Shown here: one piece after another, positions 21,828 through 56,869 of the stretch
Layout of the letters: the number at the start of each line of letters is the position of its first letter
How positions within the stretch are numbered: the stretch's first letter is position 1
From: Patescibacteria group bacterium
Lineage (GTDB): Bacteria > Patescibacteriota > Gracilibacteria > UBA4473
DNA length: 64,000 bases
Assembly (NCBI GenBank): GCA_965660445.1
Contig: CBFIAK010000001.1
Span: forward strand, 416,001 to 480,000
Direction of reading: 5' to 3'
Position numbers and translations under genes: made by a program
Notes under the pieces: generated by a model
Told to the model about the DNA's origin: nothing
Seen by the model: the letters and a program-made list of their open reading frames with translations, nothing else
Databases searched by the model: none

Positions 21828-22454
21828 TCAGTGTTTTTGTTTTTGAGCTAGTACAACAAAATTTTTGTTGTTTACGCAGTGGGACTCAAGACATTGAAAC
21901 CCATTTTTTTGGGTCAGATTTCGTAGTTCTCTATCACTTACTCGTCTATATGTTCGAGGATATTTTTGAGTACCAAATGGGACGTTCCAGTTTTTAAAGC
22001 GACCTCGAAGGATATTGGGCCAGAAATGTTTTTTTGGTATTTTCCAAGTGGTAAGAAAAAGGATTCCATTCGGTTTGAGCACTCGAAAACATTCGGAGAG
22101 AAACTGGTTTTGTTCATGGCGTGACAAAAGATGATGGAATGAAGCAATACCAATAATCATATCAAATGTATCGGACCCAAAAACGAGAGGTTCTTTCATA
22201 TCCTGAAGAAAAAAGTGATCATGCGGGTATTGAGACCTTGCTATATCTAGAAACTCTTGTGAGTTATCGAACCCAAAATAACACCCTTCTTGGTGACGAT
22301 GTTCAGACAAAAATGATCGCAATCGTCCATTTCCGCATCCCGCATCGAGAATCCGAGCATGAGGGGATATAAATGGGGCGCACATTTCAAACTCTTCCCA
22401 ATGAAAATGGCGAGTACGAGAAAAATCGTGAGCAAAAGAGTCGTATTGTGCCAT
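21828..22454 (-). CDS. class I SAM-dependent methyltransferase (Trm9/ALKBH8-MT-like)
   Basis: YDSFAHDFSRTR..W, LDAGCGNGR, IASFHHL, RVLKPNG. Confidence 0.85.
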   Translation of the reverse strand: MAQYDSFAHDFSRTRHFHWEEFEMCAPFISPHARILDAGCGNGRLRSFLSEHRHQEGCYFGFDNSQEFLDIARSQYPHDHFFLQDMKEPLVFGSDTFDMIIGIASFHHLLSRHEQNQFLSECFRVLKPNGILFLTTWKIPKKHFWPNILRGRFKNWNVPFGTQKYPRTYRRVSDRELRNLTQKNGFQCLESHCVNNKNFVVLAQKQKH

Positions 22455-22539
22455 GCCTTATAAAAGGGATACAAAGGGATGATACTCGTATTTGTAAGGA
22501 GTGCAAATGAAGGATATTTAGGGGAAAACTATTTTTTAT

Positions 22540-22568
22540 TTGCAAAAAATTTTTTTCTGTGGTACAAT
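22540..22568 (+). promoter_or_regulatory. sigma70 promoter with extended -10, facing a non-coding region
   Basis: TTGCAA-17 nt-TACAAT preceded by TGn; AT-rich upstream; no credible + strand CDS follows. Confidence 0.7.
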
Positions 22569-22867
22569 ATCTAGATTTGTTCATTGAAAGTTCGAAAAAA
22601 ACGGAGAGTGTGGAGAAGAGGAGTCCTCTCTTCCCATAAACTATATAATTTTTATTTTCCTATTTTATTATATTGGGCATAAGAGTCGGTATTGCTCTTT
22701 TCCACTCTCTCCGCTTTGCGATGTCGTTCTAGCGCCTATAGACTACGCTTAGAATGCACCACAAAACGCGAGAGGCACGATTTTCAAAAAGACGACTTGT
22801 TCTTCGAAAGAAAAGAAGCCGCCTTCTCGAAAACCGTTTTGAGGTATTTTACCAAAATACAGTCTGT

Positions 22868-22896
22868 ACAATACTTATTTTATAATAACTTGTCAA
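22868..22896 (-). promoter_or_regulatory. sigma70 promoter
   Basis: Minus strand TTGACA-17 nt-TATTGT. Confidence 0.6.
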
Positions 22897-23005
22897 ATAA
22901 GATTCTACACCCAAAGACTCTGATCGGTAACGCAGGAATCCCGATTTATCGGGAAGAGAAGATTACCCAAGCAAGGCAAGAGAACAGATTCCTAGTCAGA
23001 ATCAT

Positions 23006-23076
23006 AAAAGACCGATACTTTATTTTACTCGATAATTATGAGTTTTCAAAATAAAGGACATTATCGGTCTTTTTTT
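23006..23076. terminator. long hairpin/terminator downstream of the AI-2E gene
   Basis: aaaagaccgata...tatcggtcttttttt with inner ctttatttt/aaaataaag stem. Confidence 0.7.
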
Positions 23077-24166
23077 ATTTCCCGAGAATATGTTGGTAAT
23101 CAGTTTTGTAGATATGGAGGAATGCGATAGTAAGGGTGAGAATAATCGGTCCAAGGATAATTCCTTTGAGTCCAAACATTAAAGCTCCTCCTAAAATCAT
23201 AATCATAACAGCGAGTGGATGCAGTGTTGCTTTTGATCCAATAATGTATGGTTTGAGTACATTATCAATATTGGCAACGAGGAGCACAGCCCAAAGGATA
23301 AGAAACACTGCTGATACAATTTCTCCGGATATGAGGAAGTAGACACTTAAAGGAATCCATATAATGGCAGATCCTACATAAGGAATGGGGGAAAGGAGTG
23401 CTCCGAGAGCAGCCCAAAAGATACTGTTTTGGATACCTAAAATACCAAATCCAATTCCAAGGACTATTCCTTGTGCTAGAGCACCGCCGAACATACCAAA
23501 GACAATAGAGTTCATTGCATTTTCTATTCGTACAAATAATGCATTTTTATGGGACATATCAAGAGGGATGAGGGTTTTGATATATTTGATGAAGTTCTGT
23601 CCATCACGAATAAAATAAAAAAGAGCGACGAGGAATATAATCAAATGGATAATAACGATGGATATTTGTTTGATGATATTGGCGGTATGTTCGATTAAAA
23701 ATGCGCTTATAGAACGAACGATATCGGTAGCAGTGTTGGCTATATTTTCAACGGAGAACGGGTTATTTTTTAAGAAACTTTCTGCCCATGCGTGAAGATA
23801 GGGGAATCGGTCAAAGACACTGATATCAAATGATGGTTCGGCATCGAGGTTTTGCAAGGCAATACGCATATGATCGTAGGCGCTATAGGCTTGACCAATA
23901 ATTGAGAGAATAAAAAACGTAAGAGGAATAAGGAAGAGTATTATGATGAGCATAAATGTCACGAACGACGCCACTGAATTAGAAAACTTGATCCATTGCT
24001 GAATAATTTTGTGGAGTGGATATATAGACACCGCTGTCATTCCAGCAGCAAAAAGCGTTGCGAGAAATGGCAAAGCGAAAAAGAATGAGAGAACGACAAA
24101 AAAAAGTGCTGCTCCGAGGAGGAAATTTTCTTGAAACCGATAATTCTGGAATTTTATAGGTGGCAT
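23075..24166 (-). CDS. AI-2E family transporter
   Basis: YPLH, FYFIRDG, SPIPYVGSAIIWIP, IDNVLKPYIIG, FGLKGIILGP. Confidence 0.93.
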   Translation of the reverse strand: MPPIKFQNYRFQENFLLGAALFFVVLSFFFALPFLATLFAAGMTAVSIYPLHKIIQQWIKFSNSVASFVTFMLIIILFLIPLTFFILSIIGQAYSAYDHMRIALQNLDAEPSFDISVFDRFPYLHAWAESFLKNNPFSVENIANTATDIVRSISAFLIEHTANIIKQISIVIIHLIIFLVALFYFIRDGQNFIKYIKTLIPLDMSHKNALFVRIENAMNSIVFGMFGGALAQGIVLGIGFGILGIQNSIFWAALGALLSPIPYVGSAIIWIPLSVYFLISGEIVSAVFLILWAVLLVANIDNVLKPYIIGSKATLHPLAVMIMILGGALMFGLKGIILGPIILTLTIAFLHIYKTDYQHILGK

Positions 24167-24368
24167 TTCGGTTATTACGATGTGTAGTATGAGAAAAGAT
24201 TTTTATTTTTCAAGGTTGGGCATGGTTTTTCAGTGGAATCGTTCTTAAAAGTGTTTTAAAAAAATATTTGAAAAACAATACAAGTTATTTTTTCCCGAAA
24301 ATTTGATTTGTGAAGATGAAGCTCTTATTATGCTTGTGTTTACACATACACATAACACACATATACAT

Positions 24369-24884
24369 ATGAAAAAAACACATGCTGGTTTTTCGCTCAT
24401 TGAGCTCTTAGTTGTGATTGTTATCATGGGGATCTTAGCAACGATTTCTTTGGGAACCTTCCAAGGATTTTTTGCCAAATCTCGTGACTCTGATCGACAA
24501 GCTATTTTCGCAACTCTAAAAACAGCTATTGTAGCTGATAGAACAGGAAGCTCGGAGGGATATGATATTACTCAAGATTCTGATTATAGCGATGTGGAGA
24601 CATATATTGCCACTTTAATGGATGATAATGAGTTAGATCTTTCGTATGATGATGGATGTTATTATGCTGGGTTTGGTACGGATACAGCGAATACAAAGCG
24701 AAATTTCTTCTTGGCTTTCTTAAAAGAAGATACTGGTGAGATGGAATATTTTGGTACAAAAGATGGTATAGCAGCTGCAGCCGCTGTTTATGATTCAAAT
24801 GTTGTGAATGTCTTTGAGGATGGAGGAAACTGTGCGGCAGCAAGTGTTTCTGATTATACAGTAGAGCAGTTGTTTGATTCGTGA
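24369..24884 (+). CDS. type IV pilin / prepilin-type N-terminal cleavage protein
   Basis: MKKTHAG|FSLIELLVVIVIMGILA class III signal, KSRDSDR, C-terminal Cys pair. Confidence 0.93.
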   Translation: MKKTHAGFSLIELLVVIVIMGILATISLGTFQGFFAKSRDSDRQAIFATLKTAIVADRTGSSEGYDITQDSDYSDVETYIATLMDDNELDLSYDDGCYYAGFGTDTANTKRNFFLAFLKEDTGEMEYFGTKDGIAAAAAVYDSNVVNVFEDGGNCAAASVSDYTVEQLFDS

Positions 24885-31351: not shown

Positions 31352-31427
31352 TGGGGCGGACGATGGGGATTGAACCCACGACCAACGGAACCACAACCCG
31401 TTGCTCTACCACTGAGCTACGTCCGCC
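31352..31427 (-). tRNA. tRNA-His(GTG)
   Basis: Cloverleaf GGCGGACG...CGTCCGCCCCA, anticodon loop TT-GTG-GT, G-1:C73, encoded CCA. Confidence 0.97.
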
Positions 31428-49563: not shown

Positions 49564-49653
49564 TGGCGGAGAGAGAGGGATTCGAACCCTCGGTGCGGTT
49601 ACCCGCACAACACCTTAGCAGGGTGCCGCTTTCGACCACTCAGCCATCTCTCC
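49564..49653 (-). tRNA. tRNA-Ser(GCT)
   Basis: GGAGAGA...TCTCTCCGCCA, anticodon loop CT-GCT-AA, long variable arm. Confidence 0.97.
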
Positions 49654-53230: not shown

Positions 53231-53306
<76 letters not shown>

Positions 53307-53311
53307 TAATA

Positions 53312-53386
53312 GCCACCATAGCTCAGGGGTAGAGCACATCCATGGTAAGGATGGGGTCTCGAGTTCAAATCTCGATGGTGGCTCCA
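53312..53386 (+). tRNA. tRNA-Thr(GGT)
   Basis: GCCACCA...TGGTGGCTCCA, anticodon loop AT-GGT-AA. Confidence 0.97.
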
Positions 53387-56794: not shown

Positions 56795-56869
56795 TGGCAT
56801 CGCCAGGGGGAATCGAACCCCCGTTACCAGAATGAGAATCTGGCGTCCTAACCACTAGACGATGGCGAC
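56795..56869 (-). tRNA. tRNA-Glu(CTC)
   Basis: GTCGCCA...TGGCGATGCCA, anticodon loop TT-CTC-AT. Confidence 0.97.

Follow-up and report, generated by a model that had tools for sequence, protein, structure and literature searches.

What does a bacterium with a genome of 0.99 Mb (36.7% G+C, rated 100% complete) keep in a spacer of 620 nucleotides (nt) that holds no credible coding sequence and shows two promoter-like signals facing each other? The question is raised by positions 22455-23074 of a 64,000-nt stretch of DNA (hereafter, the window) from a Patescibacteria group bacterium. A first-pass annotation of the window had described two convergent promoters, a boxA-like word and a long hairpin in the segment 22540-22896, and all of them were found where it had placed them. 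The answer that we give with high confidence is that this spacer, which is free of open reading frames (ORFs) of credible coding capacity, harbours one real + strand gene for a structured non-coding RNA of ~500 nt (22575-23076). A promoter on the opposite strand, located inside the gene, likely produces a short cis-antisense RNA, as judged by sequence comparison.

Extent and fold of the + strand RNA

The homologs of the RNA were reduced to 22 distinct copies after removal of duplicates, and 10 more copies were obtained from metagenome contigs; the majority of the latter are similar to members of the first set, and about four are distinctly new. When the loci were compared side by side, a shared order of elements was found on the + strand. 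The order starts with a promoter, a G(T/C)TCTTT-type word and a strand rich in purines, whose pyrimidine-rich partner, with CTCTCC at its end, is located 60-200 nt downstream. The 17-mer that comes next is almost invariant and is followed by a hairpin, a multi-stem block and a variable spacer; the order ends with a conserved block around the invariant AGCAAGGC, a small hairpin and a long hairpin followed by a U-run. The layout was the same in 10/10 metagenome contigs.

The + strand folds into a structure more stable than expected from its composition. For 22571-23080 (510 nt), the minimum free energy (MFE) was -141.9 kcal/mol (z = -7.11), and the hairpin 22571-22740 alone yielded -54.1 kcal/mol (z = -5.08), a stability that none of 200 shuffled sequences equalled. 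Sequence conservation starts at 22706 and continues onward; it does not start at the apex of this hairpin. What is kept in relatives is the closing stem, P1: its duplex has -34.7 kcal/mol in the window, reaches -15 kcal/mol or lower in 22/22 homologs and is better than 95% of shuffles in 20/22, and the sequence of its inner segment varies between homologs. The 17-mer that follows is unchanged in all 16 sequences of the alignment used for domain A (A1).

Two folded domains, A and B, lie downstream of P1. In domain A, the 29 proposed pairs were intact in 88.3% of 453 cells of the alignment, compared with 79.3 ± 0.9% in column shuffles (0/500 shuffles reached the observed value), and changes on both sides were found in 18 pairs, compared with 8.3 ± 1.9 in the shuffles (0/500). 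Domain B was examined in an alignment of 22 sequences (A3): its 8 pairs were intact in 95.5% of 176 cells (88.9 ± 1.1% in shuffles; 0/500), and both-side changes affected 5/8 pairs (1.8 ± 0.9; 1/500). The 500 column shuffles ignore relatedness, and safer guides are the number of distinct pair types and the slid controls, in which the partner is shifted by 1-3 columns; both agree with the shuffles. In the slid controls pairing fell to 32-50% for domain A and to 22-52% for domain B. The alignments were made with MAFFT and carry no structure refinement, so that the CTAGTCA-loop hairpin and the apex of P4 are under-counted. Both domains are kept by covariation.

The strand of the RNA can be told from wobble pairs. 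A G·U wobble in H2 is retained in 15/16 sequences, and more cells are paired when the alignment is read as + strand than as - strand RNA: 125 vs 104 of 144 in H2, 109 vs 100 of 112 in H1 and 124 vs 118 of 144 in Plong. Because of these wobble pairs, the RNA is assigned to the + strand. H1 is a helix between the 17-mer and the 5' strand of Plong, in which 109/112 cells pair and the sole changes are transitions, which keep a wobble in any case; it may be an alternative helix. A further pseudoknot in domain A, P3, is tentatively proposed between GATTTTC and GAAAAC, with 85/105 cells paired.

Both ends of the gene are also recognizable in relatives. A sense promoter matching at least 9/12 consensus positions lies upstream of the RNA in 20/22 distinct homologs and in 10/10 metagenome contigs, and the TTGAC column of its -35 element aligns across loci. 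At the other end, a + strand hairpin with a U-run is found 3' of domain B in 20/22 homologs, 16 of which have it 89-104 nt past AGCAAGGC. The limits that the first-pass annotation had set were too narrow: the 3' half (22844-23076) had been missed, and the unit runs to the predicted terminator at 23010-23076.

The RNA measures 450-700 nt in relatives, mostly on account of longer spacers and of additional sequence in the 5' region. The additional segment, present in most relatives, occupies ~60-130 nt between the transcription start site (TSS) and the boxA-like word, and begins with a conserved CCTGA. It was seen in loci L011, L012, L013, L077, L108, L113, L119 and L126; the window copy has none.

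Coding capacity was a further claim to be examined. Two ORFs of at least 60 amino acids touch the region: 22692-23054 (+, 120 amino acids, TTG start) and 22387-22584 (-, 65 amino acids). The former has no Pfam match, and no ORF of at least 25 amino acids keeps its position across 18 homologous loci. The earlier statement that the region contains no credible coding sequence is therefore upheld.

Table 1. Features of the RNA gene, its flanks and the putative antisense RNA (positions refer to the window).
Feature	Position	Strand	Remarks
Methyltransferase gene	21828-22454	-	left flank of the spacer
Sense promoter	22540-22568	+	TTGCAA-17-TACAAT, TG-extended -10; 9/12; inferred TSS ~22575
boxA-like word GTTCATTGAAA	22579-22589	+	4 nt past the inferred TSS, immediately 5' of P1
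P1 closing stem	22602-22712	+	5' strand 22602-22627, 3' strand 22685-22712; variable A/U-rich apex
17-mer CTCTCCGCTTTGCGATG	22707-22723	+	first 6 nt close P1; remainder unpaired or in alternative helix H1
Domain A	22722-22843	+	contains H2, Plong, P2 and P4
H2 hairpin	22722-22731/22750-22758	+	domain A
Plong, long-range helix	22760-22768/22835-22843	+	domain A
P2	22769-22773/22825-22829	+	domain A
P4 GACGACTT/AAGCCGCC	22791-22798/22816-22823	+	domain A; two conserved A·C oppositions
Putative cis-antisense RNA, ~75 nt	22786-22861	-	inferred; ends at a hairpin (P4 complement) + U5
Variable spacer between domains	22844-22907	+	small hairpin 22843-22860; antisense promoter on the opposite strand
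Antisense promoter	22868-22896	-	-35 TTGACA (22896-22891), 17 nt, -10 TATTGT (22873-22868); 10/12; inferred TSS ~22861
Domain B	22908-23003	+	pseudoknot of S1 and S2, insert hairpin, AGCAAGGC, CTAGTCA-loop hairpin
S1	22920-22922/22933-22935	+	domain B pseudoknot
S2 GGTAA/TTACC	22926-22930/22963-22967	+	domain B pseudoknot, crosses S1
Variable insert hairpin	22940-22953	+	domain B
Invariant AGCAAGGC	22970-22977	+	domain B
Hairpin with loop CTAGTCA	22987-23003	+	domain B
Terminator hairpin + U7	23010-23076	+	overlaps the stop codon of the AI-2E transporter gene; forms in the 510-nt MFE fold
AI-2E-family transporter gene	23075-24166	-	right flank; convergent to the RNA gene

Two observations concern the window outside this locus. 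The ORF 24303-24884 (+, 193 amino acids) has a prokaryotic N-terminal methylation motif and encodes a type IV pilin-like protein. Five tRNA genes (31355-31426, 49567-49653, 53231-53383, 56798-56869) are the sole matches above the Rfam gathering score in the 64 kb.

The promoter on the opposite strand

A pair of convergent promoters is not informative by itself: the segment 21500-24500 contains 11 promoter-like sites, compared with 9.2 ± 2.7 in 50 shuffles. The bare pair is at chance level and, on sequence grounds, it is the comparison with relatives that makes it real. A - strand promoter of at least 9/12 is present in the inter-domain spacer of 19/22 homologs, and a + strand one in 2/22; at a threshold of 10/12 the figures are 16/22 and 0/22. 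The metagenome contigs show the same asymmetry (10/10 vs 0/10). The - strand pattern, TTGAC(A/T), 16-17 nt and TAnnnT, stays in register with domain B even though the spacer varies in length and sequence. The antisense promoter sits inside the sense gene, between its two folded domains, an arrangement that the first-pass annotation, having missed the 3' half, had not seen. Together with that of the sense promoter, the boxA-like word and P1, this conservation lends support to the earlier suggestion of a new non-coding RNA with an antisense partner, as far as predicted signals go.

A possible end of the antisense transcript is also detected. In the window, a terminator-like hairpin (-10.9 kcal/mol) followed by TTTTT lies 70 nt past the inferred antisense TSS, and 14/22 homologs have a - strand hairpin with a U-run at 35-90 nt. 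In several relatives this terminator is wholly within the spacer, and the antisense RNA would span the linker only. We consider a short cis-antisense RNA likely, and the antisense reading as a whole somewhat more probable than its negation.

Several points weigh against this reading. No antisense terminator is found nearby in 8/22 homologs, and the antisense promoter is missing (5/12) in a second copy of the RNA present in the same genome. The two hexamers read on the minus strand might instead belong to a motif of the + strand RNA. Finally, both promoters, both RNA ends and the antisense RNA itself are predictions; the one sequencing run in which the locus was found is of DNA, and may be the source of the sequence itself.

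An alternative possibility is that the minus-strand promoter serves the next minus-strand gene, which is the methyltransferase gene in the window and ruvB in many relatives; a long leader would then be antisense to the RNA by chance, and no discrete small RNA would be made. The orientation of the 5' flanking gene fits this proposal, as its strand is opposite to that of the RNA both in the window and in the four loci of which the two flanks were examined, and so does the lack of a nearby terminator-like site in the 8 homologs just mentioned. However, the other 14 do have a hairpin with a U-run 35-90 nt past the TSS, and elsewhere RNA and 5' neighbour share a strand, for example in loci L035 and L021 (lgt in both) and L011 (a gene at 537-1184). 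The methyltransferase gene has a promoter-like site of its own at 22507-22479, and the position of the antisense promoter is fixed relative to domain B, with no such register to the genes next to the RNA. Read-through into the next gene is a live alternative, albeit an unlikely one.

The variable spacer also invites the idea that the locus contains two separate + strand small RNAs, one made of P1 and domain A and another of domain B and the terminator, and that no single 500-nt transcript exists. The variation of the spacer in length and sequence is compatible with this idea, as is the second copy in the genome, which keeps domain B and loses most of domain A. However, the + strand of the spacer shows a promoter in just the 2/22 homologs cited above, none of them reaching 10/12. 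In addition, no + strand hairpin with a U-run follows domain A in the alignment, and every complete locus contains both domains, always in this order. We regard this division as improbable, and retain a single transcript with an internal antisense promoter as the preferred reading.

Distribution, gene context and known RNA families

In a BLAST search of the spacer against 41 genomes, matches were found in 10/24 genomes of the same family and in 0/16 genomes of 16 other families. The search yielded a single further copy in the genome of origin (C1:265413-265555, - strand). This second copy extends over C1:265387-265617 (-), at locus L021, and adjoins lgt. It retains P1, the 17-mer (with two changes), H2, domain B and the terminator. 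Only two copies are thus present in the genome, not the many dispersed ones expected of a repeat element.

Two broader searches were made. The 17-mer, with one mismatch at most, was found in 26/42 family genomes in addition to the genome of origin, and in 10/358 genomes of 39 other families; a reversed 17-mer, used as control pattern, had matches in 2 genomes. Eight of the loci outside the family were examined, and because all of them lack domain B we consider these eight a product of chance. A covariance model built on domain B (R1), whose E-values are rough, matched 33/43 family genomes, with the genome of origin included and two copies in 7 genomes, and 0/135 genomes in a class-wide sample of other families. 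Of the ten R1-negative family genomes, 3 carry the 17-mer, two of them at contig ends; neither R1 nor the 17-mer matches three others, whose completeness is rated at 99-100%.

A search of named genome records for the 17-mer pattern yielded 119 stretches, 13 of which are true homologs according to BLAST; the remainder are chance matches in unrelated taxa. The true homologs belong to Candidatus Peribacteria (7) and Candidatus Gracilibacteria (6). Three pattern matches in viral contigs were all due to chance and lacked the layout, and no true copy was found there. In the genomes sampled, for which "not found" is not equivalent to absent, the RNA occurs solely in one family of Peribacteria-type bacteria of the candidate phyla radiation (CPR).

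The gene context varies. In four relatives whose two flanks were examined, the RNA has ruvB on one side and a gene for an S1-domain protein on the other, both on the opposite strand. A different 5' neighbour is found in the two loci adjoining lgt, and the window copy, with its methyltransferase and AI-2E transporter genes, has a different context again. Because the RNA ends in a terminator, has no same-strand gene downstream and changes neighbours, we conclude that it is a free-standing gene and not the leader of a neighbour gene.

These data bear on the proposal that the locus is a cis-acting leader or riboswitch of a neighbour gene, or else the remnant of a repeat or mobile element. The unusual length of the spacer and the two copies in 7 genomes might suggest an origin of this kind. 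Against it stand the terminator, which faces a convergent gene, the changing neighbours, the presence of just 2 copies in the genome with no further BLAST matches, the lack of true matches in viral contigs and the absence of flanking repeats or transposase-like ORFs from the ORF list of the window. We give this proposal a very slim chance.

Known families were searched with Rfam 15 (4227 models). No match above gathering score was found in the spacer, and at E ≤ 10 the locus 22350-23200 yielded noise only (best, SIB, 23.7 bits vs a cut-off of 56); nine homologous loci searched at E ≤ 1 yielded noise of microRNA type only. No family explains the locus at either threshold, and the OLE, ROOL, GOLLD, HEARO and raiA models had no match in it.

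The suggestion of a divergent 6S RNA, that is, an RNA polymerase decoy, is largely refuted and keeps next to no weight: the long irregular hairpin recalls 6S RNA, and a 6S gene is unaccounted for by RF00013 in the whole genome of origin at E ≤ 0.001, but RF00013 does not match the locus even at E ≤ 10, conservation of the hairpin is limited to its basal stem, the apex once read as a bubble varies in sequence and length, the RNA has ~500 nt and a pseudoknot domain instead of ~180 nt, and 3/5 relatives that carry it have 6S-like candidates elsewhere (35-46 bits, just below the Rfam cut-off). Likeness to 6S RNA is limited to a sigma-70 promoter of the kind found at abundant RNAs and a long imperfect hairpin; the RNA fails the covariance model, lacks a central bubble that is conserved and is three times as large. 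The candidates are G013:C1:841029-841185, G016:C1:402334-402492 and G019:C4:12402-12559; one of them has a weak BLAST match in the genome of origin (C1:100765-100819), which may be an undetected 6S gene.

RNase P was considered because two short words of domain B are reminiscent of it, and was dropped: RF00010 has no match in the locus and maps elsewhere both in the genome of origin and in 5/5 relatives. The candidate for class A RNase P RNA in the genome of origin (C2:32783-33097; locus L001:1501-1815) scores 36.5 bits against a cut-off of 100, and in the Infernal alignment its 5' P1-P4 strand is almost unaligned. In the 5 relatives, RNase P RNA scores 95-169 bits and lies at positions unrelated to the homolog loci. 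The RNA described here resembles RNase P class A in size class, in its pseudoknotted fold and in a 17-nt hairpin (22938-22954) identical to one of the RNase P candidate; it differs in that its locus is unmatched by RF00010 and RNase P RNA is encoded elsewhere.

Transfer-messenger RNA (tmRNA) was discarded on similar grounds, with no match in the locus at E ≤ 10 and a match of 105 bits at C1:176141. RNA of the signal recognition particle (SRP; RF00169, RF01854) was found neither in the locus at E ≤ 10 nor in the genome of origin or 5 relatives. These results agree with the earlier remark that no tmRNA, RNase P or SRP signature is seen. The M domain of Ffh (PF02978) was not found in any of 31 genomes (31/31), a sample that spans 13 families of the class. 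A simple replacement of SRP by the RNA was rejected, as the Ffh M domain is missing across 13 families whereas the RNA is confined to one. According to an excerpt of PMC8080830, many CPR bacteria lack SRP subunits; the failure to find SRP components in the genome of origin and its relatives is probably nothing new.

Other known systems were compared. A type I toxin-antitoxin locus was rejected, since no toxin ORF is present and no ORF of the size considered above keeps its position across the 18 loci. A riboswitch or cis leader was rejected for the orientation of the terminator and the differences between neighbours already described. The invariant segments showed no meaningful complementarity to 16S rRNA, the longest exact complement being 7 nt, which is chance level. 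ColE1 RNA I/RNA II and type I toxin-antitoxin loci share with the predicted arrangement a long structured sense RNA and an internal opposite-strand promoter for a short, perfectly complementary RNA with its own terminator. In contrast to these systems, the antisense RNA proposed here would target a spacer in the middle of the sense RNA, not its 5' end, and the sense RNA has no toxin ORF, is encoded by a chromosomal gene and ends at a terminator.

The closest likeness in kind is to OLE, ROOL, GOLLD and the raiA motif. Like them, the RNA is encoded by a stand-alone gene of several hundred nt and has many covarying helices, invariant unpaired stretches, a narrow taxonomic range and no tie to a downstream ORF. 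It differs in having no Rfam model match, in being hosted by a CPR family and in carrying a boxA-like word as well as an antisense promoter that is conserved within the gene; to our knowledge, neither element has been described for those classes. By the available tests, the RNA belongs to none of the known families with which it was compared.

No report was found in the literature on non-coding RNA of Peribacteria or Peregrinibacteria, and the abstracts and titles on CPR bacteria and structured RNA contain nothing on this RNA. In the passages of the Peribacteria genome paper (PMC4736985) reached by term search, none deals with non-coding RNA, SRP or RNase P.

The boxA-like word, a proposed mechanism and its significance

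The word TGTTCATTGAAA at 22578-22589 aligns with the family-wide G(T/C)TCTTT word, whose position in the family is always directly 5' of P1. A passage of PMC5725501 quotes GYTCTTTAANA as the boxA consensus of gamma-proteobacteria; measured against it, 2 copies have no mismatch, 11/22 have at most 1 and 19/22 at most 2. The word was also compared with the rRNA leaders of the organisms themselves. A word G(C/T)TCTTTTTCATTTCG(A/G)AC follows the promoter in the 16S leaders of the genome of origin and 4 relatives. In the former, the 16S rRNA promoter is TTGACA-17-TACAAT and the leader word is GCTCTTTTTCATTTCGAAC (C1:142125-142260), conserved in the four relatives; in one relative, the word of the RNA and that of the 16S leader have a common A-rich prefix and a subsequent TCGGA. 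A NusB gene is present in the genome of origin (C2:116620-117003, 89.4 bits).

The likeness to an rRNA leader can be summarized as follows: a long untranslated RNA carries a G(T/C)TCTTT-type word shortly past its promoter and immediately upstream of a long-range helix, the 16S leaders of the organisms have similar words, and NusB is present. The differences are that the RNA is not rRNA, that the window word is 2 positions off the quoted consensus and that no Rho was detected. We infer, by analogy, that the RNA may be transcribed like rRNA by a Nus-modified polymerase, the gain being ordered folding of long-range helices and not escape from Rho; the role of the word would be in folding or processivity.

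Three points count against a boxA function. The first is the pair of mismatches of the window word to the gamma-proteobacterial consensus (PMC5725501, as quoted there). The second is that a loose boxA-type pattern has 90 matches in the 0.99-Mb genome; in such an A/T-rich genome, the word alone is insignificant. The third is that the RNA-binding domain of Rho (PF07497) was not found in the genome of origin. Protection from Rho is the usual rationale for boxA, and with no Rho detected it may not apply here. On balance, a boxA function seems moderately probable.

The explanation that we favour, with moderate confidence, is a single structured RNA gene of ~500 nt, family-confined and absent from Rfam 15, that would operate as follows. 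Conserved consensus matches suggest that a sigma-70 promoter fires the gene. The boxA-like word would then recruit NusB/NusE, as on the rRNA leader of the organism, and the Nus complex would keep the polymerase processive and hold the 5' end close to the exit channel during the folding of P1 and the two domains. Domain A would adopt its multi-stem form with the A·C helix, and domain B its pseudoknot beside the unpaired AGCAAGGC, with pairings borne out by covariation; transcription would end at the intrinsic terminator. The RNA may act in trans, as a ribonucleoprotein scaffold or a catalytic core, rather than as leader of a neighbour gene. The most speculative step is the last: the opposite-strand promoter in the spacer would make a cis-antisense RNA of ~40-90 nt, and either perfect pairing with the spacer or head-on transcription would set the amount of full-length RNA. 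Alternatively, antisense pairing might direct a double-strand cut that separates the domains.

Some observations sit uneasily with this explanation. In the second copy in the genome of origin, a short hairpin stands in for Plong, P2 and P4, the part of domain A with multiple stems; because that copy lacks this part as well as the antisense promoter, both are dispensable in at least one copy. Because R1 is built on domain B, its negatives concern that domain: no R1 match was found in 10/43 family genomes, three of which are rated 99-100% complete. Nothing found points to a specific function or cellular partner, and confidence on this point is low. The more specific proposal, a new class of pseudoknotted ribonucleoprotein or ribozyme RNA of Peribacteria-type CPR bacteria, transcribed with boxA/Nus and with domains uncoupled or dosed by antisense RNA, is tentative, and we place it slightly short of an even chance.

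What is new here is the RNA family; boxA and antisense RNA are known kinds of regulatory piece. The combination of boxA/Nus transcription, a built-in antisense RNA and a large RNA, if true, is not known from any described class of bacterial RNA. Two questions are raised. One is whether boxA/Nus serves, beyond rRNA, in the folding of long non-coding RNAs where no Rho is detected. Another is what purpose a conserved antisense promoter serves halfway along the gene of a structural RNA.

Few bacterial RNAs are both large and elaborately folded, and those with a known role, among them ribosomal RNA, RNase P, tmRNA and group I and group II introns, do central jobs; the orphan classes OLE, ROOL, GOLLD and raiA each started a research line of their own. 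CPR bacteria have genomes of ~1 Mb, with little space for dispensable sequence. The fact that a family with such small genomes keeps one or two copies of an RNA of 450-700 nt, with invariant unpaired segments, argues that the RNA plays an important role in these bacteria.

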